Shown piece after piece: positions 11,339 through 55,661 of a stretch of 64,000 nt of DNA; position 1 is the first letter of the stretch; every line of letters begins with the position of its first letter. The position numbers were made by a program, and so were the translations under genes. The notes below the pieces were generated by a model. The model was not told where the DNA came from. It ran no database searches and saw only the letters and a program-made list of their open reading frames with translations. Origin of the DNA: Elusimicrobiota bacterium (lineage in GTDB: Bacteria; Elusimicrobiota; Endomicrobiia; Endomicrobiales; JBDRNC01); contig JBDRNC010000018.1 of assembly GCA_043811535.1 (NCBI GenBank), forward strand, positions 108,455 to 172,454. The letters run 5' to 3'.

Positions 11339-11441
11339 AAGTTTCTGGTTGGTGTTTTCCGTTATCGTTTCAAGACGACCAACATTAATGCAATTAAATC
11401 GAAGTGCCCGTCAGGGTATACTATTCACCAATCCCTAGTCA

Positions 11442-11690: not shown

Positions 11691-11768
11691 ATTAGGAGTA
11701 CCCGCCAGGATATAACCGCTCCTTTGAAACCGTGATCCCACCCCGTAGGTTGGATACTCTTGGTTCAG

Positions 11769-41575: not shown

Positions 41576-41658
41576 CCAAAAACGTATCTCGGGACTCGTA
41601 TCTCGTCGTTCGTAGTATGCCTTACGAGATGCGAGATACTAGATACGAGATACCGTAG

Positions 41659-42842: not shown

Positions 42843-42935
42843 TGTTCCTCCAAAAACCCGTATCTCGTATCTAGTATCTCGCATCTCGCAAGACCTGTTT
42901 CGAACGACGAGATACGAGTCCCGAGATACCGTCGT

Positions 42936-43871
42936 TTAGTCTTGCCTTGAATATTCAAGCATTTTGTCTATCGCCAGTTTCGCCTTGCTTCTCACCGGCT
43001 CTTCAACTTTAATCACATTTTTCATGTTTTCAAGCGACCACAGCACTTTTTCAAGAGTGTTCTTTTTCATGTTCCGGCAAACCGCCGCGTCGCTCGCGGG
43101 ATAGAATTCCTTGTCCGGGCTGTCTTTCTTCAGGCGGTATATGATACCGGGTTCCGTGCCGATGATTATCTCTTTATTTTTTGATGTTTTCGCGTAGTTT
43201 ACCATGCCGCTCGTGGAAAGAACTTTATCCGCGAGTTTTATAACTTCGGGCCGGCATTCGGGATGCACGACCACTTCCGCGCCCGGATGCTGCTGCCTGG
43301 CTTTCAGGACGTGCTCGGGCAGTATGTTGTTATGAGTGGGGCAGTACCCGTCGTACAATATCATGTCCTTGCCGGTCTGTGTCATCACGTAATGCCCGAG
43401 ATTCCTGTCCGGCACGAATATTATGTCCCTGCCCGCCGTGGCGGGATTGCCGCCGAGCGATTTGATTATCTGCACGGCGTTGGCTGAAGTGACGCAGATA
43501 TCGCTTTCCGCCTTAACTTCGGCCGAAGTGTTCACGTAGGCGGCAACAACAGCGTTGGGGTGATTTTTCTTAAGAGCGGCAAGTTTTGCGGCGTCTATCA
43601 TGTCCGCCATCGGGCATCCAGAGTCAATCGCGGGAAGCAGGACGGTTTTTTCCGGGGAAAGTATCGCGGCGGTCTCAGCCATGAAATGCACTCCGCAGAA
43701 GACGATGACATCGGCCTCAGTTGAGGCGGCCTTCCGGCTCAGGTCCAGGGAATCTCCCAGAAAATCGGCGATATCCTGCACCTCGGGCAACTGGTAGTTG
43801 TGCGCGAGAATGACAGCGTTGAGTTTCTTCTTAAGTGTTTTTATCCGGGCAACAATTATATCCGGTCCCAT
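42936..43871 (-). CDS. nadA: Quinolinate synthase A
   Basis: NadA signature regions (ILAHNYQ, HPEC) and Cys ligands. Confidence 0.9.
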   Translation of the reverse strand: MGPDIIVARIKTLKKKLNAVILAHNYQLPEVQDIADFLGDSLDLSRKAASTEADVIVFCGVHFMAETAAILSPEKTVLLPAIDSGCPMADMIDAAKLAALKKNHPNAVVAAYVNTSAEVKAESDICVTSANAVQIIKSLGGNPATAGRDIIFVPDRNLGHYVMTQTGKDMILYDGYCPTHNNILPEHVLKARQQHPGAEVVVHPECRPEVIKLADKVLSTSGMVNYAKTSKNKEIIIGTEPGIIYRLKKDSPDKEFYPASDAAVCRNMKKNTLEKVLWSLENMKNVIKVEEPVRSKAKLAIDKMLEYSRQD

Positions 43872-46299: not shown

Positions 46300-47091
46300 T
46301 CAGCATTCTTCAATTTTCGCCATTTTGTCGGCTGTCGCGCCGTCTAGATTGAAAGCCGCGTCAAACAGCTTTTCCTTAAACGTCCCGGGCCCCTGCGCCG
46401 ATTTCGCGGCTATCTCCGCGGCTATTTCAAAACACGCAAGCCCCGCGGCCGCCGCAAGCGCCAGATCTTTCTCAACCGCCGCGAAAGCGCCGATTACGGA
46501 CGTCGCCATGCAGCCCGTGCCCACGACATGAGTCATCATCTTGTCGCCGTTTTTCACAATATACGAGTTTTTTCCGTCAGTTATTACGTCTTCCTTCCCG
46601 GTTATCACAACTGCGCATCCCTTGGCTTCCGCGAGTTTCCTGGCGATCAGCATGAGGTCTTTCCCTATATCGGTTGAATCAACTCCTTTTGTCCTGACAT
46701 TTTCTCCCGCTATCCTGGCCACTTCAGAGGCATTGCCTTTTATTATGTCCACTCTTACTTCTTTCAGTATCTCAAAACATTTATCGTCGCGCAGCTTGGT
46801 GGCCCCCGCCCCGCACATATCCAGCACGACCGGTATGCCCTTCTTGTTAGCTCTTTTTGCCGCGATTTTCATGGCGTTGACAAAATCTACCGTCAGCGTG
46901 CCGATATTTAGCACGAGCGCCGACGCGATACCCGTCATGTCGGCGACTTCCTCATGCGCGTGGGCCATGACCGGCGACGCCCCGAAGACCTTCACTATGT
47001 TCGCGCAGTCGTAGATCGTCACCCAGTTCGTAAGATGATGGACGACCGGTTTTTCCTTCCTGATTTTTTCAAGCAAATGAGATACTTTCAT
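46300..47091 (-). CDS. thiM: Hydroxyethylthiazole kinase
   Basis: ThiM motifs (VVHHLTNWVTIYDCANI... GASPVMAHA). GGAG 8 nt upstream of the ATG. Sits downstream of the TPP riboswitch. Confidence 0.85.
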   Translation of the reverse strand: MKVSHLLEKIRKEKPVVHHLTNWVTIYDCANIVKVFGASPVMAHAHEEVADMTGIASALVLNIGTLTVDFVNAMKIAAKRANKKGIPVVLDMCGAGATKLRDDKCFEILKEVRVDIIKGNASEVARIAGENVRTKGVDSTDIGKDLMLIARKLAEAKGCAVVITGKEDVITDGKNSYIVKNGDKMMTHVVGTGCMATSVIGAFAAVEKDLALAAAAGLACFEIAAEIAAKSAQGPGTFKEKLFDAAFNLDGATADKMAKIEEC

Positions 47092-47334
47092 TTGATAAAC
47101 TCCTTTTTTATTAAACTCGAAGCTCGAAACTCTCCCGCTACAGCGGGACTTCATAAAGTTATTATCGGAAATCCGAAGTAAACAACAAACGAAAAACTAC
47201 AACAAACAGCTCTGTTTGCTTTCTGACTTTTGTAGTTTTTTCGAGTTTCGAATTTAGTATTTCGGATTTTGTTCCGGCTCTATGAATTAGCTTTAACGGA
47301 AGCACTATTCTGGACTTTGCGGTATTTAGTGAAG

Positions 47335-47425
47335 TGTGTGTGCCATGTTTCCTCCCTCCGCTGGCATTACCCAGATCAGGTTTTTGCGGTAATCCCGTTA
47401 CTACGGGAACTCTCAGGCCGTTATA
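47335..47425 (-). ncRNA. TPP (THI-box) riboswitch controlling thiM-thiE
   Basis: The minus-strand sequence GGCCUGAGAGUUCCCGUAGUAACGGGAUUACCGCAAAAACCUGAUCUGGGUAAUGCCAGCGGAGGGA matches the TPP aptamer core (CUGAGA ... ACCUGAUCUGGGUAAUGCCAGCG ... GGGA). Confidence 0.8.
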
Positions 47426-47524
47426 CGACCTCCCTTGATGTCAATTAAACCGAAGTGCCTAGTATAGGTACGACCTCCCTTGATGTCAATTAAACCGAAG
47501 TGCCTAGTATAGGTACGACCTCCC
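47425..47524 (-). promoter_or_regulatory. Tandem 45-bp direct repeat (2.2 copies) whose junctions form a consensus sigma70 promoter TTGACA-N17-TATACT upstream of the TPP riboswitch
   Basis: Unit ACGACCTCCCTTGATGTCAATTAAACCGAAGTGCCTAGTATAGGT is repeated exactly. On the minus strand each junction reads TTGACAtcaagggaggtcgtaccTATACT. Confidence 0.65.
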
Positions 47525-48550: not shown

Positions 48551-48772
48551 TTATCTGGTTATCAGATCAACGTACAAGTCTTCAACTTTTTTTCTTGCCC
48601 AGGGGGTTTTCCTGAGGAATGTCAGACTGGACTTGATGCTGGGATTCATATTAAAACACTTTATCCTGATCCTGCCGCCGAGTTCCTTGAATCCGTAATG
48701 AGCTACCAACCGCTCAAGTATCATCAACAATGTTACCCCGTGAAGAGGGTCTTTTGATTTTATATCGGTCAT
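48551..48772 (-). CDS. DUF2132 (VF530-like) small putative nucleic-acid-binding protein
   Basis: [60 protein letters not shown] matches the VF530 family. The long upstream extension in the track overlaps czcA and is rejected. Confidence 0.55.
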
Positions 48773-48804
48773 TTCAAGGCTTCCTTTCATGACAAGCGCA
48801 AGAT

Positions 48805-51800
48805 TTATTTGTTTATTATCTCTTTTTTCTTCCAGAGGAAATACACCGCGGGGTAAACAAGGAGTTCCATCAGGAAAGACGTGAATATGCCTCCAACCAA
48901 AGGGGCCGCTATGCGTTTCATCACGTCGGCGCCTATTTCGTAGCTCTGCGCCCACATGATTGGAAGCAGTCCTATGAACAGAACGGCCGCCGTCATCATT
49001 TTGGGGCGTATCCTCTTCACCGCGCCGTGGTGAACGGCGGATTTCAAGTCATCTATGGTTTTTAACAACCCCTTCTTTTTCATCTCGTCATGCGACAGGT
49101 CGAGATACAGAAGCATGAATATCCCGGTTTCGGCGTCCACGCCGAGAAGCGCAATGATACCCGACCAAACGCCGATTGACATGTTGTATCCCAGCAGAAC
49201 CAGTATCCAAACTGCACCTATCAGCGAGAACGGCACCGCGAGAAGTATTATAAACGTCTTGGCGTATGATTTTGTGTTAAGATAGATGAGAATGAATATT
49301 ATGAAGAGCGTCAGAGGTATTACTGTTTTCATGCGCTCATTGACCCGTTCCATAAACTCGAACTGTCCGCTGAACTGGATGGAATACCCGGAAGGCAGTT
49401 CGACTTCCTTTTTTATCATCGCCTTCGCATCGTCAACGTAACTGCCCACATCCCTGTCCGCCACGTCTACGTAGACATATCCGGCCAGCCGGCCGTTCTC
49501 ATCGCGTATCATGCCCGGCCCGGTCTCTTTTCTTATTTCGGCGACCTGCGAAAGCGGTATCTGGGCTCCCGAAGGTGTCGCTATGTACATCCTCTTTATC
49601 TTATCTATGTCGTTCCTTAATTCTCTGGGATAGCGCACGTTGACCGGGAACCTTTCCCTGCCTTCCACTGTCTGCGTAACGTTCTCCCCGCCTATCGCCG
49701 CCATTATGTTCATCCCGACATCTTCCACCGAGAGCCCGTATCTGGCCAGGGCGTCCCTGTTAAGGTCGAAATTAATGAAATACCCGCCGGCGGTCCGCTC
49801 GGCGAAGGCGCTCCTGGTGCCCTTGACCATCGCCAGGTGCGATTCTATCTCTTTCCCTATTTTTTCTATCACCGACAGGTCGTCGCCGTATATCTTAATC
49901 CCTACAGGCGTCCTGACGCCTGTTGTCAGCATGTCTATCCTGCCTTTTATAGGCATCGTCCACGCGTTGACGACTCCGGGCAGTTTCAGCTTGGCGTCCA
50001 TCTCGGAAATCAGCTCTTCCCAGCTTATCCTGTCGGGCCATACCATGCGGAACGGGCCTTCCATGAAATCCGGGAGGAAGCTGTACCACCTGTCCTTGCG
50101 CCGCCACTCGTTCTGCGGCTTGAGCAATACTGTGGTTTCCATCATCGAAAGCGGCGCCGGGTCAGTGGACGTCTCGGCCCTTCCGGCCTTGCCGAACACG
50201 CTTATCACTTCGGGGAAGGATTTCAGGAGCTTATCCTGCGCCTGCAGGAGTTCCGCCGCCTGGCTTATTGAGATGCCGGGTAATGTCGTGGGCATGTAGA
50301 GTATGGACCCCTCGTTAAGCGGAGGCATAAACTCTTTCCCAAGCATGAAGTAAGCCGGTATGGTCAGCATAAAAGCCAGCACCGCTCCGAAAATAACTTT
50401 GTATGGATGCCTGAGCACGGCATCTACCACCGGCCCGTATATTTTGAACAGGAACCTGGATATGGGATGATTTTCTTCGGAGTGTATCTTGCCCACAAAA
50501 ACGGCATTGAAGAGTTTCGAGAGCCAACCGGGTTTGAAAATGAAACCTTTGCTGCGTATAAGCAGGGTCATTATCGCCGGAACCAGCGTGACGGTGAGCA
50601 AGGCGGAGAAGAACATGGCGAAATTCTTGGTGAAAGCGAGCGGTTTGAAGAGCCGCCCCTCTATGCCCTCGAGCGTGAATATCGGTATGAAGGCGACCGC
50701 TATCACGATAAGCGAGAAGAAAGACGGCCTTGCCACTTCCTTGATGGAATTTATGAGAACTTCCGAAAAGCTCCCCTTGCCGCCTTCTTCCCTCCAGCGC
50801 GCGATGGACTTGTGCGCGTTCTCCACGATGACGATGGCGGCGTCCACCATTGCGCCGATAGCGATGGCTATCCCCCCGAGCGACATCACGTTTGATGTCA
50901 GCTTCATGTAGTGCATGGGTATGAACGCGAGCAGTACGGCTATCGGAAGAGTGACAATTGGTATCACGGCGGAAGGGAAATGCAGAAGGAATATAAGGAT
51001 AACCAGGGAAACGACGATCATTTCCTCGATAAGTTTCTTCTTGAGCGTATCCACTGCCCTATTGATGAGTTCAGAGCGGTCGTAGACCGGCACAACCTTC
51101 ACGCCGTCCGGAAGCTGGATCTGCGAAAGCCTTTCCTTGACGCGCCCGATTGTGTTGAGCGCGTTCTCGCCATAACGCATCACGACGATCCCGCCGACGA
51201 CCTCGCCGCTGCCGTCAAGCTCGGCGACGCCTCTCCTGATCTCCGGCCCCATCTCAACTTTCGCCACGTCCTTTATCTTCACGGGCACGCCGTTGCTCAC
51301 TTTAAGCACGGCCTGCTCTATATCTTCCTTTTTCGTTATGTATCCCTTGACCGTAAGCATGTACTCCGTTCCGGAAAATTCGATCACGCGCGCGCCCGTT
51401 TCCTGGTTCGCGCTCTTGACGGCTTTAACAACGGATGAAAGGGGTATTTTGAACTGCTGGAGGGCGTTAGGGTCCACAACGACCTGATATTGCTTGACAT
51501 ATCCGCCGATAGTGGCAACTTCGGAGACGCCCTTAACCGACTGAAGCGCGTACTTCAGGTGCCAGTCCTGGAAAGTCCTGAGTTCGTCAAGGGAATGCTT
51601 GCCCGATTCATCAACAAGGGCGTACTGGTAAATCCAGCCCACACCGGTGGCGTCGGGGCCGATCTCCACGTTCGCCTCTCTGGGCAACTGCTGAGTGACC
51701 TTGGAAAGATATTCAAGCACCCGCGAGCGCGCCCAGTAGATATCCGTGCCGTCTTCAAAGACAATATAGACATAAGAAAAACCGTAATCGGAAAACGCGC

Positions 51801-52044
51801 GGATATCCTTGACTTTAGGCGCGCCGAGCAGGGCGCTGACTATAGGGTATGTGACCTGGTCCTCTATGACCTGCGGGGGCTTGTCCCATTTGGCATAGAC
51901 TATTACCTGCGTGTCGGATAGGTCAGGTATGGCGTCAAGCGGTATATTTTTTACGGACCACACCGCCCAGGCCGTCATGAATATGACGCCCATTAAAACG
52001 AAAAACTTATTCTTAGCCGACCATTCAATAATGCGTTCTATCAT
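48805..52044 (-). CDS. czcA: Heavy-metal efflux RND permease (CzcA/CusA, HME family)
   Basis: 1079 aa with 12 TM helices, two large periplasmic loops and HME-type motifs. Confidence 0.9.
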
Positions 52045-52244
52045 AATATATACCGTATCTCGTATATCCTGTCGGGTACTTAGATTTAATTATACTAATG
52101 TTGGTCGTCTCGTATCTAGTATTTGGTATTTAGTTAACGACTATATTTTGACAACACGGGCAAGGGCCATGGGTCAAGGTTTAAACCGTCATTGCGCCCG
52201 CTCTCAAAGAGGGAACGAAGTAAAACAATCTTTCTATATGAATC

Positions 52245-52886
52245 CTATTTTATTTTTATTGTTTTTATAGTTTTTTCCTTAAACCCGTCAAAACCTTTTA
52301 TTGTTATTTTATCTGCTGAATCTAATACTTTAAAGTCAATATTATTTGAATATTTCTCATCAAACTCTTCAGTCCACAATAATTTTGATAATTTCACATC
52401 GTACAATGACAGTATTGATCCTCTTCCTAATTCACTAATTAAATAGTATTTCCCATCTCTTGAAATCGCAGTTTTTTTTATGTATTTAAAGTGCTCCTTA
52501 TTTTTATCAATAGCTATATTGCCTATTAATCCGCCATCCTTGCCATAAAAAGATAAACCTGCGTACCCGCCTTCGTCATACCAACCCCAGTTTGCCATGG
52601 CTATATACTTTCCATTATCCGAAATATTAACTTTGCCGGGTGTAGCTGGAATTTCTTTGCTCCACAATATTTTATCTCCCTTTTTAAAAGTACATATTGA
52701 CGGGGTACATATTGACGAGCTTCTGTCTGGATAACCCAATATTTTTATATCTATACTATATCGCTTATTTTCAGATGTGAAGGTATCAATTGACCCTACA
52801 TCTCGGACTGTCGCTTCTGCAAATGCATGCTTAAAAAAAGTTGTAACGAAACAAAGTATCAGCAAAAATAATACTTTTTGCCTCAT
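52245..52886 (-). CDS. Hypothetical secreted protein in an AT-rich insertion
   Basis: Start at MRQKVLFLLILCFVTTFFKHAFA (AAGGAGG upstream). GC is markedly lower than in the flanking DNA. No known domain. Confidence 0.5.
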   Translation of the reverse strand: MRQKVLFLLILCFVTTFFKHAFAEATVRDVGSIDTFTSENKRYSIDIKILGYPDRSSSICTPSICTFKKGDKILWSKEIPATPGKVNISDNGKYIAMANWGWYDEGGYAGLSFYGKDGGLIGNIAIDKNKEHFKYIKKTAISRDGKYYLISELGRGSILSLYDVKLSKLLWTEEFDEKYSNNIDFKVLDSADKITIKGFDGFKEKTIKTIKIK

Positions 52887-53002
52887 ACTATTCATCCTCC
52901 TTAGAAATCCTGACGACACATCTTAATTGTTCAATTTTGAGTCAATATGTATCTTCTGTCTATTTTAGGCAAAATAATTAGATTCCCGATAAACCGGGAT
53001 AG

Positions 53003-53500
53003 TTATTTATGTTTATCTTTCAGCCTTTCGCGCATCAATGTAAATACCGCTCTAAAATTATCATCGTGCACCATGACTTTTTTCTCAATATCATCAAGTC
53101 TTCTCGCGGTTGTTTTATAACTGGGCAGTAACTCCCTGAATTTTACAAATGCCCTCATTATGCCGATATTCACCTGAATCGCTCTTTCGCTCTTCAGTAC
53201 GCTTGAAAGCATAGCTACCCCTTCCTGAGTAAATACATACGGCATTTGATATGAATATTCAAGGGGTTTTAGGTGGTCACAATTTGTGACCACCTCTTTC
53301 AGTTCATCCCTCGTCAATTGAAACATGAAGTCATCCGGAAACCTTCTGATATTCCTTTTCACTGATTGATTCAAGACTTTCGTCTTTACGCCGTACAAAC
53401 CCGCCAAATCCCTGTCAATCATTACCCTCTGCCCGCGTATAAGAAGTATTTTTGTGTGTAATACTTCATCGTTTACCACCATGATCTCTGCTTTCGACAT
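53003..53500 (-). CDS. ORF6N domain protein (phage/mobile-element associated DNA-binding family)
   Basis: IRGQRVMIDRDLAGLYGVKTKVLNQSVKRNIRRFPDDFMFQLTRDE matches the ORF6N family. Confidence 0.65.
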   Translation of the reverse strand: MSKAEIMVVNDEVLHTKILLIRGQRVMIDRDLAGLYGVKTKVLNQSVKRNIRRFPDDFMFQLTRDELKEVVTNCDHLKPLEYSYQMPYVFTQEGVAMLSSVLKSERAIQVNIGIMRAFVKFRELLPSYKTTARRLDDIEKKVMVHDDNFRAVFTLMRERLKDKHK

Positions 53501-53633
53501 ATACCCCCCATTTAACAGTATATTTGTAATTTCTAGTTTCGAGTTTACTTTACGATAGATTCTTCGCTTTGCTCAGAATGACATCTTTTTTGTCTTTCAC
53601 GAGATACGAGATGCGAGTCCCGAACGACGTTTT

Positions 53634-54881
53634 TTATTCGTGCTCCATTCCCGGCATGTTGTCCATGCCGCCGCCCGCACCGCCGGACCGGAGCTGGCTT
53701 TCAGAGTCAAGCATGAAATTGCCGTTGGTCACGACACGGTCTCCTATCTTCAGGCCGTCCTTGATCTCGACATAGTCATCCCCCGCAAAACCAGTCCTTA
53801 CATCAACAGGTTCGTATTCTCCGTTGCCGTAATCAAGATATACTACTTTCCTCACGCCGGTATCTATGAGGGCCGTCTTAGGCACGGCGATAAGGTTCCC
53901 TCCGGAAATCTTAATCTCCACATTGGCGAACATTTCAAGTTTCAAAAGGTTTCTCGTATTGTCCACGATTATCCTTGCTTTCGCGGAACGCGTTTCGGGA
54001 TTGAGGGAAGGTTCCACAAGCACGACTTTACCGTAAAATCTTACTGAAGGATAGGTATCTGTCACTACAGTGACATTCCTGCCGGGTTTGACGGACTGCA
54101 GGTCGTTCTCGTAGACGTCGGCAAAAAGCCATGCCTCGGAACCGGGAAAGAGGAGCGTTTTGTCGGGTTGTTTTCGTTTTTCAAGAGCCTTGATGTCCTT
54201 ATCCGTGTACCCGAAAAGCGTCAGGCGGAACTTCGTGGCATCCAGCAGATCGCTGGTCGTTTCACCCTGTTCCCTTAGGCTCTTGTAAGTAAGTATGTAT
54301 TCCTGCTGGGTCAGGTACAGGTCGTTGTCGTACGCGACTCTCGCGGGCAGGCGGAAGCTTTTATCCACACGCATCACGCGCACCGAACTGCTCTTAAGAC
54401 CCAGCAGTTTTCCTGTTTTCTGGTCGACGGCTATTTTATTCCCTTCCTTTTTGTATACAGGAACCAGGTCCATGCTGCATATGGGGCATTGCCCGGGGTC
54501 GTGTTCCTTGACCTGCGGATGCATCGGGCAGGTCCAATAGACTATTTCCTTGTCGTCCGTTCCCGCGCTCATATCCTTCATGTCTTTCATATTCCCCGTA
54601 TCTTTCGTGTCTTTCATATTCTGCATATCATGGCTCGTCATGACGCCGAGTTTCTTCTCGAAATCCGCCGAGCAGTCCGGGCAGCAGAGAAAATACGTCT
54701 TGCCTTTGTAATCCACCGCCATAGTTTCCTTTTCGACAGTGAATACGTTATTAGTCACCGGGCAGACCGCCTGCATGCCTATCTCTGCTTTTTCCGCAGG
54801 CCTGAGGTTGTAGCTGCTGTTCTTTGAGCATGCCGAAATCAAAAGAAAAACCAGTGTCAGCGATAAAATGATTTTTTTCAC
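53634..54881 (-). CDS. czcB: Heavy-metal efflux RND periplasmic adaptor (CzcB/CusB-like lipoprotein with N-terminal metal-binding zinc-ribbon module)
   Basis: GTG start 7 nt after AAGGAG gives MKKIILSLTLVFLLISAC (lipobox). YWTCPMHPQVKEHDPGQCPICSMDLVPV metal-binding module, then membrane-fusion-protein barrel-sandwich domains. Confidence 0.8.
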   Translation of the reverse strand: MKKIILSLTLVFLLISACSKNSSYNLRPAEKAEIGMQAVCPVTNNVFTVEKETMAVDYKGKTYFLCCPDCSADFEKKLGVMTSHDMQNMKDTKDTGNMKDMKDMSAGTDDKEIVYWTCPMHPQVKEHDPGQCPICSMDLVPVYKKEGNKIAVDQKTGKLLGLKSSSVRVMRVDKSFRLPARVAYDNDLYLTQQEYILTYKSLREQGETTSDLLDATKFRLTLFGYTDKDIKALEKRKQPDKTLLFPGSEAWLFADVYENDLQSVKPGRNVTVVTDTYPSVRFYGKVVLVEPSLNPETRSAKARIIVDNTRNLLKLEMFANVEIKISGGNLIAVPKTALIDTGVRKVVYLDYGNGEYEPVDVRTGFAGDDYVEIKDGLKIGDRVVTNGNFMLDSESQLRSGGAGGGMDNMPGMEHE

Positions 54882-54959
54882 GATGCGACTCCTTTGGCGG
54901 AAGGGCCGCCGCCATTCCCGCATAAGACATGCGCCCGATGCGGGAAAGATATAGGCGGA

Positions 54960-55571
54960 TTATGGATTGAAATGTTTCTTCTTGTATCCTTCAAGCAGTT
55001 CCAGGGATTTATCTTTGCACTTGCCGCAGACGGTGCCGATCTTCGTCCGTTCCTGCAGTTCGGCGTAAGTCCTGGCGCCCTCCAGCACGGCGTTCTCAAT
55101 TTCTTCATCGGTTATGCCCATGCACTGGCAGATAATATGGGATTTCTGCTGTTTGACCTTGTCTAATTTGCCTATTCGGGTGTAGTAATCGTCTATCGCG
55201 GCCCTGAGGGCTTTGTCGCCTAATACGGAACAGTGAATCTTGTGCTCGGGCAGGCCGTCAAGCGCCTTGGCGATATCCTTTGAAGTCAGCCCGTAGGCCT
55301 CGTCAAGCTTTTTGCCTTTGGCTATCTCGGAAAGCACGGAAGTGCTGGCTATGGCGCTCGCGCAGCCGTAGGTTTTCCACCTGATATCCTTTATCGTTTC
55401 TTTCTCTTTATCAACCTTGATGAGCACTATCATCTCGTCGCCGCACTTGATATTGCCTACGGTGCCCTTGCCGTCTTCAATGAAGTCCTCGTTATCCTGA
55501 AGGACGTTCTTTGGATTCATGAAATGCTGTTTAAGTTTTTCGGAATAAGCCCACGCGGGACCGGATGTCAT
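54960..55571 (-). CDS. nifU: NifU-type Fe-S cluster scaffold (IscU-like N-domain plus BFD-like [2Fe-2S] domain)
   Basis: GNIKCGDEM, KTYGCASAIASTS, HCSVLGDKAL, then ICQCMG...CGKCK. Start at MTSGPAW (GGAG 6 nt upstream). Confidence 0.8.
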   Translation of the reverse strand: MTSGPAWAYSEKLKQHFMNPKNVLQDNEDFIEDGKGTVGNIKCGDEMIVLIKVDKEKETIKDIRWKTYGCASAIASTSVLSEIAKGKKLDEAYGLTSKDIAKALDGLPEHKIHCSVLGDKALRAAIDDYYTRIGKLDKVKQQKSHIICQCMGITDEEIENAVLEGARTYAELQERTKIGTVCGKCKDKSLELLEGYKKKHFNP

Positions 55572-55661
55572 GCCAAACTCCTTTATGAACGATAGATGGT
55601 AAACGGGAGAAAGTAGATGGAAAAACAAATTAAAATCCGTTTCCCTTCTACCGTTTTTCTT

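Follow-up and report, generated by a model that had tools for sequence, protein, structure and literature searches.

In the 64-kb stretch of Elusimicrobiota DNA described here (the window, whose coordinates are used throughout), the genes for a CusB-like periplasmic adaptor and a CusA/CzcA-family heavy-metal efflux pump are separated by a spacer of 1,589 bp (52045-53633) that holds an ORF6N-domain gene and a truncated gene for a secreted beta-propeller protein. The distances between the two pump genes in related genomes, together with the base composition, the gene content and the boundary repeats of the spacer, indicate that this AT-rich 1.59-kb stretch is likely to be horizontally acquired DNA that was inserted into the short cusBA spacer of this Elusimicrobiota lineage. 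The window belongs to a metagenome-assembled contig of 172 kb. All four genes, cusB, ORF6N, propeller and cusA, are co-directional and are arranged as follows:

54923..53634, minus strand: cusB-like periplasmic adaptor gene, 429 amino acids (aa), with an HlyD_D23 barrel-sandwich and N-terminal HMBD/YHS/TRASH motifs
53500..53003, minus strand: intact, stand-alone ORF6N gene, 165 aa, PF10543
52886..52245, minus strand: signal-peptide beta-propeller gene, 3'-truncated, 213 aa, without a Pfam match
52044..48805, minus strand: full-length gene for a cusA/czcA-family heavy-metal pump of the resistance-nodulation-division (RND) type, 1079 aa, ACR_tran, TIGR00914

Evidence for an insertion comes from the relatives. 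One genome per species was scanned with CusA, which gave 61 loci at 46-82% identity. Among the 57 loci with both genes, the cusB stop and the cusA start are a median of 27 bp apart and never more than 707 bp: 46 loci fall at 100 bp or less, 10 at 101-300 bp, one at 707 bp and none beyond. Neither an ORF6N gene nor a propeller gene lies between cusB and cusA in any of these 57 loci; one ORF6N gene was seen in L007, 5 kb away from the cus genes. A previous inspection of the DNA (the original prediction) had claimed that an insertion of about 1.6 kb splits a czcB-czcA operon, and both the unusual distance (1,589 bp against the median of 27 bp) and the lineage specificity (the four-gene arrangement is present in 0 of 57 related loci) are borne out by this comparison. 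CusA is 81-82% identical over residues 1-1079 to the pumps of L001, L002 and L026, and CusB shares 62-66% identity with the adaptors of L026 and L001. Since adaptor and pump are closest to those of the same genomes (L001 and L026), they appear to share their history as a pair. The cusB-cusA spacers of the close relatives L001, L003, L005 and L015 are 160-285 nt long and are filled with other lineage-specific short palindromic repeats, which suggests that a repeat-bearing spacer is the likely ancestral state. Neither the same contig nor a near-identical strain was found in the queried collections, the contig index has no entry for the exact proteins, and the 90%-identity clusters of CusA, of the ORF6N protein and of the propeller protein have one member each.

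The spacer also differs from its surroundings in composition. Its GC content is 36.1% compared to a window mean of 49.4% (standard deviation 3.1%, in 1.5-kb windows), and it is the lowest 1.5 kb of the entire 64 kb, confirming that the insert is more AT-rich than its flanks. At the gene level we used the 44 other long open reading frames (ORFs) of the window as a reference (GC 50.3 ± 2.9%; GC at third codon positions, GC3, 60.9 ± 5.7%). With a GC content of 32.2% (z -6.2) and a GC3 of 27.6% (z -5.8), the propeller gene is the lowest-GC gene in the window. The ORF6N gene is less extreme (GC 40.2%, z -3.5; GC3 45.8%, z -2.6), and cusB and cusA do not stand out from the rest of the window (z +0.2 to +1.3). 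With this deviating composition, and with the four-gene arrangement missing from the relatives, the original prediction withstands both of the outcomes that it had named as refuting it. Because homologues of the propeller gene elsewhere match the GC content of their hosts, the low value found here points to a foreign donor. ORF6N genes elsewhere average 3 GC points below their flanks and are lower than these in 39 of 49 cases.

Apart from ORF6N and the propeller gene, the insert contains no ORF of 50 aa or more with coding-like features. The propeller gene is damaged. We place its start at an ATG behind GGAGG, which gives 213 aa; in the ORF list the frame begins further upstream, with a GTG at 52919. 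The original prediction described the product as a secreted protein without recognizable homologues. Secretion is supported by the signal peptide, but 19 homologues of about 262 aa exist, and the comparison with them reveals that the gene is 3'-truncated: the protein aligns to homologue residues 1-195 and then continues with 13 unrelated residues to its stop. No remnant of the missing last ~65 residues is encoded downstream. The model of the full-length homologue P0002 (predicted local distance difference test, pLDDT, 91.3) consists of a signal helix and about 20 strands, and a Foldseek search with it retrieved beta-propellers of the YncE/YVTN kind (E 3e-9, TM ~0.55). Two further features belong to this gene and its downstream side:

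52690..52717, minus strand: 15-nt tandem duplication within the propeller gene (direct repeat of 13 nt, 100% identical, spacing 15)
52124..52244, minus strand: 121-nt spacer between the truncated propeller gene and the 3' arm of a split hairpin repeat (see below), GC 42%

The duplication inserts five residues (SICTP) that are missing in 19 of 19 homologues, and the 121-nt spacer has no match in any fetched locus. The propeller gene is most likely a non-functional remnant, either a decaying passenger or a fragment from a lower-GC donor, as judged from its sequence. We conclude that the cusA-proximal junction is a scar of deletion or illegitimate recombination and not the precise end of an element. 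The propeller homologues have unrelated neighbours: one lies beside a resolvase fragment and AbiE genes, another beside a P-type ATPase. A conserved pairing of ORF6N with the propeller gene was ruled out, as tblastn of the propeller against 97 ORF6N loci finds nothing.

The other gene of the insert, ORF6N, is intact. Its product matches the ORF6N family PF10543 over profile positions 2-86 of 86 with 107.1 bits (cutoff 27.8, E 6e-31), in agreement with the original assignment. It also matches the PADLOC models of the candidate anti-phage family PDC-S05, namely PDLC04856 (E 1.1e-57, positions 5-165 of 177), PDLC04869 (E 2.9e-52) and PDLC04849 (E 2e-39), and the family carries the PHROG label 'anti-repressor' (E 3e-29). 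At least 7,975 homologues were detected at E ≤1e-10, and the window protein aligns end to end. Homologues of about 60% identity occur across Omnitrophota, Elusimicrobiota, Nitrospirota, Margulisiibacteriota and Ignavibacteria; the family also extends to Bacteroidota, Spirochaetota and others. The AlphaFold (AF2) model of the window protein (pLDDT 80.6) shows a compact N-terminal domain, which is of a DNA-binding type, followed by a C-terminal helix of 38 residues. A sequence search of solved structures gave coiled-coil noise only, and Foldseek returned nothing under E 0.35, the MerR/MarR-like matches being weak and not significant. Pfam, PHROG and Foldseek revealed no nuclease domain and no known catalytic motif.

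The link to phages and integrative elements that had been proposed for ORF6N needs correction for the subfamily present here. It is rare in phages, with matches in 4 of 50,697 phage records and in 9 viral contigs; the subfamily is mainly chromosomal and is better described as the PADLOC candidate PDC-S05. We rejected a phage origin of the insert on the grounds of these few records and contigs and of the propeller gene, which matched no PHROG family. The insert contains no integrase, and the phage structural genes or integrase that would be hallmarks of an island or a prophage remnant were not found. Genes that lie within type I restriction-modification (RM), BREX or DISARM loci served to define the PDC families (Payne et al. 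preprint, 10.1101/2024.01.29.577857), and a PDC-S05 representative with a RhuM domain reduced plating of T7 and T5 about 1000-fold in E. coli (10.1101/2024.09.26.614923). The window protein belongs to a candidate anti-phage family and might have a role in defence. No known defence system surrounds it: within 10 kb in either direction there are NifU, an aminotransferase-type ORF, VF530 and Smr-domain genes.

Both borders of the spacer carry repeats, and their structure indicates how the foreign DNA is seated. The "TCTCGTATC" blocks noted in the original prediction are real, and the same repeat family does flank the ccdA-tlpA cassette, with copies at 41.6 and 42.9 kb. One 9-mer, GATACGAGA, is found four times in the window compared to 0.38 expected, a count reached in 0 of 100 shuffles. 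Its sites (41642, 42863, 52108 and 53603) mark both borders of the spacer as well as both borders of a CcdA/thioredoxin-like pair, and a looser search recovered heptamer-built blocks at 41583-41654, 42856-42919, 52051-52123 and 53599-53618. The idea that these blocks are ends specific to the insert is improbable. They are best read as the two mutually inverted arms of one resident hairpin repeat of about 78 nt, in which GTATCTC-type heptamers follow one another up to a short loop, with a complementary run of GAGATAC-type heptamers behind it. The repeats of the window are:

41578..41657, plus strand: intact hairpin copy A, between ccdA and terC; RNA fold -32.6 kcal/mol, z -4.2
42852..42937, minus strand: intact hairpin copy B, between nadA and the thioredoxin-like gene; fold -32.7 kcal/mol, z -3.2
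53598..53633, minus strand: 5' arm of the split hairpin, directly after the cusB stop; 24 of 28 positions identical to element A positions 4-32
53558..53582, minus strand: GTCATTCTGAGCAAAGCGAAGAATC motif, a single copy in the window
52108..52122, minus strand: 3' arm of the split hairpin (ATACTAGATACGAGA); 15 of 15 positions identical to positions 61-76 of A and B
52062..52110, minus strand: 49-nt second repeat element, 86% identical over 49 nt to window positions 11373-11421 (E 6e-5)
52051..52066, minus strand: distal heptamer block (ATACGAGATACGG), matching the 3'-arm end of the intact elements

Copies A and B are about 90% identical, mutually inverted and intergenic. They bracket the DsbD_TM (CcdA) and thioredoxin-like (tlpA) pair, two genes of normal GC content located between nadA and terC. 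At the cus locus the arms have the order and orientation of an intact element, but the apical ~28 nt are gone and AT-rich DNA is found in their place; when joined, the cus flanks fold into a hairpin. The last 79 nt in front of cusA are native and contain the 49-nt element, that is, repeat DNA found elsewhere in the window. As the intact copies flank genes of native GC content and a second native repeat precedes cusA, we read the heptamer blocks as pre-existing repeats and not as ends of the insert. ACGAGATACGAGA, allowing up to one mismatch, is absent from all 61 cus loci of the relatives, so the heptamer repeat is lineage-specific.

Some smaller observations concern these repeats. The relatives' spacers contain GTCATYC...GRATC-type motifs and GGAGTTC repeats (L001 9755-10000, L003 ~280-440, L005 9770-10000, L015 9830-9960), and motifs of the form GTCATYC...GRATC, which by eye resemble GTCATTCTGAGCAAAGCGAAGAATC, are present in the cusB-cusA spacers of L001 and L015. 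The 49-nt element includes the motif AGTRCCCGNCAGGRTATA; its cusA-proximal copy lies within the 3' hairpin arm region and is flanked by a direct ATACGAGA repeat. Elsewhere in the window it occurs at 11373-11421, with a partial third copy at 11697-11714, in a 430-nt intergenic region at 11.4-11.7 kb.

Taken together, foreign DNA would have entered a resident ~78-nt ACGAGAT-type heptamer hairpin in the cusBA spacer and removed its apical ~28 nt, so that the arms now bracket the insert. The cargo would have been an intact ORF6N gene and a 3'-truncated secreted beta-propeller gene from a lower-GC donor. Neither insert gene matched a recombinase family in Pfam, PHROG, PADLOC or NCBIfam, the 64-kb window contains no tRNA or tmRNA, and sequence reading together with a repeat listing revealed no target-site duplication, that is, no direct repeat flanking ~53598 and ~52123. 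From the lack of a recombinase, a tRNA and a target-site duplication we infer illegitimate recombination, possibly hairpin-associated, as the mode of entry, and erosion at the cusA-proximal end may have followed.

Several observations weigh against this reading or parts of it. The sequence stems from a metagenome-assembled genome (MAG). Neither an empty site nor a near-identical strain was found in the queried collections, which makes the exact boundaries and the single event assumptions. ORF6N and the propeller gene are never neighbours in the 97 other ORF6N loci or in two propeller loci, and the two insert genes differ in GC content (40% versus 32%), so they may have come separately. Inverted heptamer blocks around 1.5 kb of DNA are also what the terminal inverted repeats of a mobile element would be expected to look like. 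Finally, the PDC-S05 representative with measured anti-phage activity carries a RhuM domain, which the 165-aa window protein lacks, and a defence role for the latter is therefore extrapolated from its family.

The first alternative builds on the differences between the two genes. The ORF6N cassette and the propeller fragment might represent two independent acquisitions that reached the same permissive spacer at different times and from different donors. The gap in GC3 (45.8% versus 27.6%) and the fact that the two families are never adjacent elsewhere are in line with this possibility, as are the terminator-like hairpin and the 116 nt between the genes and the observation that solitary ORF6N cassettes are the rule elsewhere. 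On the other hand, a second junction is not marked in the sequence and one event is more parsimonious. Moreover, ORF6N genes lie only ~3 GC points under their hosts on average, so the family may tolerate higher GC. We consider two acquisitions less likely than a single one.

A different explanation starts from the repeats and takes the heptamer blocks to be the terminal inverted repeats of a 1.5-kb mobile element, of which the ~78-nt hairpins at 41.6 and 42.9 kb would be cargo-less derivatives, similar to miniature inverted-repeat transposable elements (MITEs). Indeed, the left and right boundary blocks are inverted relative to one another (one stretch of 13 nt is 92% and one of 18 nt 83% complementary), the short elements are exactly such arms joined by a short loop, and tlpA-ccdA is likewise bracketed by inverted copies. 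We nevertheless regard this explanation as improbable. There is no transposase, integrase or HUH/Y1 gene, ORF6N is without a known catalytic motif, no target-site duplication was seen by reading, and the supposed end falls exactly where the propeller gene breaks off. The arms at the cus locus cover only part of each arm of an intact element, the intact copies flank housekeeping genes of native GC content, and the 97 other ORF6N loci are without flanking heptamer blocks.

Given the MAG source and the abrupt shift in composition at repeat-containing junctions, the locus might also be an assembly chimera in which a fragment of a low-GC organism was joined into the cus spacer via shared short repeats. 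This is highly improbable. The longest exact matches of the junction arms to other repeat copies are 15 nt or less, which is shorter than the k-mers usually employed for assembly. The arms are complementary halves in the right order, which is not expected of a random join, and the contig continues over 172 kb with cusB and cusA intact on either side.

The insertion of foreign DNA into a resident hairpin is reminiscent of known repeat systems. REP/BIME-like repeats are targeted by insertion elements, for example by IS1397 in the palindromic units of enterobacteria. The window element is likewise short (~78 nt), multi-copy, intergenic and able to form a stable hairpin, with foreign DNA between its arms. 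It differs in that it is built of tandem heptamers without sequence relation to REP and in that the insert is without a transposase; three copies were seen within the available 64 kb. Integron cassettes are a less fitting comparison: hairpin copies A and B are mutually inverted and not direct, and the cus site is one split hairpin and not two. An integrase was seen neither near the cus site nor near the tlpA-ccdA site, in the absence of a window-wide scan aimed at intI.

The interrupted module itself is a heavy-metal efflux system of the CusCBA/CzcCBA kind. CusA scores 1114 bits with the TIGR00914 CusA/CzcA model (cutoff 701) and matches ACR_tran with E 8e-222. CusB is recognized by the Pfam families HlyD_D23 (E 2.5e-26) and HMBD (E 4e-12), both above cutoffs; in NCBIfam the CusB (best), CzcB/NccB and generic RND_mfp models all stay under their curated cutoffs. 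The window shares with the known systems a CusA/CzcA-family pump and has a candidate CusB-type adaptor with metal-binding N-terminal motifs. In the relatives, which have the order OEP-cusB-cusA, an OEP (cusC-type) gene lies directly upstream of cusB (L001, L002, L005 and L015). In contrast, adaptor and pump of the window are 1.6 kb apart instead of adjacent or overlapping, cusB follows nifU, and the outer-membrane factor gene that the original prediction left to be found elsewhere was not detected within the 64 kb (tblastn with the relatives' OEPs, best E 0.04). The coordinates behind the observation on OEP and cusB are 7330-8520 in L001, 6231-7541 in L002, 7351-8604 in L015, 7042-8292 in L005 and 53634-55628 in the window. 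As the flanking nifS-nifU, VF530, smr and engB genes are not syntenic with the cus locus of any relative, the cus cluster itself appears to move between genomes.

Two further features bear on how cusA might be expressed:

52984..52999, minus strand: short GC hairpin (TCCCGGTTTATCGGGA) followed by a T-rich run, 4 nt past the ORF6N stop, a possible terminator identified by reading
52118..52089, minus strand: sigma-70-like match TAGATA-18-TATAAT, 45 nt upstream of the cusA ATG, 10 of 12 positions, a consensus match only

With the insert in place, translational coupling of cusB and cusA would be lost, and cusA would have to be expressed either by ~1.6 kb of read-through past the terminator-like hairpin or from a promoter in the native 79 nt upstream. 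The scan flagged a stem for the hairpin at 52984-52999 on the opposite strand only, which makes it weak evidence for a terminator. TATAAT-like boxes had been suggested as the source of a separate cusA promoter; one sigma-70-like match is present, but such matches are not in excess of chance in the region (10 compared to 6.7 ± 3.2 in shuffled sequence). The -10 hexamer of this match lies in native repeat DNA and reads TGCAAT in the other copy of the 49-nt element. The module is visibly degraded: its cusC neighbour is lost, and the separation of adaptor and pump by 1.6 kb predicts altered stoichiometry or regulation.

How unusual is an ORF6N gene between two pump genes? We identified the neighbours of ORF6N in 15 metagenomic loci and five plasmids. 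Embedding among housekeeping genes was seen between dnaN and gyrB (L155), between the homocysteine-binding module of metH and the rest of metH (L149), between a class-V aminotransferase gene and aroA (L126) and between ruvB and yebC (L124). Further ORF6N genes lie downstream of S-adenosylhomocysteine hydrolase (L100), sdhA/frdA (L116) and hrpB (L065), and upstream of the gene for a NiFe-hydrogenase small subunit (L145). Embedding in a defence locus was found between hsdM and hsdS (L156; also on Treponema saccharophilum pTS1, L166). A mobile context is evident where ORF6N lies between an integrase gene and ardA (L151), and several copies are located beside Mrr or McrB-like genes or transposase genes (L159, L117, L121 and Sulfuricurvum kujiense). 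ORF6N cassettes elsewhere are mostly solitary and about 0.7-0.9 kb in size; tandem copies or remnants, two or three each, were seen in 9 of 98 loci.

The cusBA case fits this habit of ORF6N to lodge between co-directional genes, which is not confined to defence loci. The insert is in this respect an islet of an ordinary kind, since acquired DNA in an operon spacer with an embedded ORF6N/PDC-S05 gene is of a kind already known. Like the PDC-S05 family, the window ORF6N is a full-length match, solitary and wedged co-directionally within an operon. Unlike in the family's defining cases, however, the host operon encodes a metal-efflux pump and not a defence system, and the protein is without the RhuM domain of the tested representative. 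'Embedding' may hence be a property of the ORF6N gene rather than evidence of a defence role. ORF6N sits in housekeeping operons about as readily as in RM loci, which bears on the interpretation of defence screens based on embedded genes, PDC-S05 being an example. The cus locus is a small example of accessory DNA that erodes an operon, and its wider interest lies in the embedding habit of ORF6N and in a palindrome that ORF6N genes carry.

This palindrome lies within the ORF6N coding sequence:

53271..53295, minus-strand gene: perfect 25-bp palindrome AGGTGGTCACAA-A-TTGTGACCACCT, in the codons for EVVTNCDHL

As single-stranded DNA it folds with -12 kcal/mol (z -6.6). To see it in context, we compared 97 different segments of homologous genes, taken from metagenomic, viral and genomic contigs, at 41-65% protein identity. 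ORF6N genes of many phyla (L065-L166) have a perfect or near-perfect palindrome of 25-31 bp at one fixed coding position. At least 10 of 12 inner base pairs are complementary at the equivalent position in 89 of the 97 genes, compared to a best value of usually 6-8 in two control windows. In a centre-anchored ungapped alignment, 85.7% of the cells pair, versus 63.9% after shuffling and 32-42% with slid partners. Double-sided changes in the arms were counted 311 times with 101 expected, and the covariation score of 0.535 (versus 0.156) was reached in 0 of 500 shuffles. Only the core TNNCAAWTTGNNA is conserved in sequence; the arms vary, with GTCACA/TGTGAC, GTCGCA/TGCGAC, GTTCCA/TGGAAC, GTGCCA/TGGCAC and ATATCACA/TGTGATAT among the variants. 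Cultured isolates have the palindrome as well, in ORF6N genes carried by complete plasmids of Bacteroides uniformis, Sulfuricurvum kujiense, Butyrivibrio proteoclasticus and Treponema saccharophilum; in an ORF6N copy of Legionella oakridgensis it was not found.

Constraints on the protein do not account for this symmetry. We rejected the palindrome as a by-product of such constraints since synonymous recoding yields 5.3 of 12 pairs compared to 11.0 observed, with 97 of 97 genes above expectation. The palindrome is furthermore read in two frames, which also speaks against an origin in the protein: its centre nucleotide is codon position 1 in 76 genes (...LRSQIVTLK...) and position 2 in 21, including that of the window (...EVVTNCDHL...). 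Because the segment between the flanking protein motifs is equal in length in both frame classes, compensating indels have preserved the DNA and not the peptide. The stretch encoded by the palindrome forms two short helices in the protein model, residues 64-73 and 75-82, and the centre of the palindrome marks the point where they meet. With G-U type pairs making up ~1% of the palindrome cells, a structure formed by RNA only appears less likely. DNA is favoured over RNA because wobble pairs are nearly absent and the symmetry runs right through the centre. Each arm is complementary to ~13 bp although its sequence is not conserved, which speaks for a structure more than for simple protein contacts. 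We infer from these sequence patterns that the palindrome acts in cis at the DNA level, as an auto-operator or as a cruciform/hairpin site. Our searches of the literature on ORF6N, on the palindrome sequences and on intragenic operators or palindromes returned no description of it.

A second palindrome of the same type is located 0-120 nt upstream of the start codon in 16 of 88 genes, compared to 1 of 88 in a control window. In 6 of those 16 it is identical or nearly so to the internal one, rare variants included. The window gene has no such upstream copy, and no second copy exists anywhere in the 64 kb. Examples of second-palindrome sites are L142 ~391, L155 ~3230, L143 ~895, L121 ~3954, L112 ~219, L147 ~620, L081 ~2924, L137 ~1079, L149 ~3856/3890 and L156 ~3837/3887, and solitary copies were also noted downstream of some ORF6N genes. 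As a separate observation, the identities N-terminal and C-terminal of the palindrome are only weakly correlated among P0021-P0140 (r 0.38 over 7,140 pairs; for instance 87% versus 61%). This weak correlation could reflect recombination at the palindrome; when N- and C-terminal identities were compared, no clear mosaic pairs passed the thresholds.

The absence of a second palindrome from the window also bears on the proposal that the insert provides regulatory input to the pump, which we could not substantiate. Equally, the notion of an ancestral four-gene unit, with ORF6N as a dedicated pump regulator and the propeller as a periplasmic accessory, can appeal to the co-directional genes, to the DNA-binding type of ORF6N and to a propeller signal peptide as in periplasmic metal chaperones, but it is contradicted by the data and extremely improbable, as the arrangement occurs in 0 of 57 relatives, the composition is foreign, the propeller is truncated, no second palindrome lies near cusB or cusA or in the 64 kb, and ORF6N homologues are found in unrelated operons.

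Intragenic auxiliary operators such as lac O2 inside lacZ and gal OI inside galE offer a precedent for regulatory sites in coding DNA. The ORF6N palindrome is likewise dyad-symmetric within a coding sequence and is paired with an upstream palindrome in the 16 of 88 genes mentioned above. It differs from those operators in being much longer (25-31 bp), in having arms that covary freely outside TNNCAAWTTGNNA and in lying within the presumed regulator's own gene, and it is a predicted site. Another parallel is provided by the seg/mob homing-endonuclease genes of T4-like phages, which are free-standing selfish genes between conserved genes. ORF6N is similarly small, autonomous, co-directional between adjacent conserved genes and patchy across lineages, but has no recognizable nuclease domain, and we know of no homing mechanism for it. 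On this basis we speculate, with somewhat less than even confidence, that stand-alone ORF6N genes might be self-contained operon-embedding cassettes and the palindrome their cis element, which could serve as an auto-operator or roadblock for a dimeric protein or as a cruciform/hairpin site for recombination or insertion. If this is true, 'guilt by embedding' alone would not mark the ORF6N family as defence, and the cusBA insertion would be one instance of a general behaviour. A nucleotide-constrained palindrome in a very large family also offers a testable handle on an uncharacterized candidate defence gene.

Two observations were made away from the insert. A thiamine pyrophosphate (TPP) riboswitch (RF00059, 56.6 bits, above the gathering score) is located at 47336-47446 on the minus strand, upstream of the ORF 47154..46300, which we take by eye, without a search, to be thiM; it was the sole match of the Rfam scan and lies far from the cus locus. 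The longest ORF of the VF530-domain gene (48551-48955) overlaps the 3' end of cusA (48805-52044) by 150 nt. Since the VF530 domain begins at residue 68, the gene probably starts at an internal Met, and the overlap with cusA is an artefact of ORF calling.

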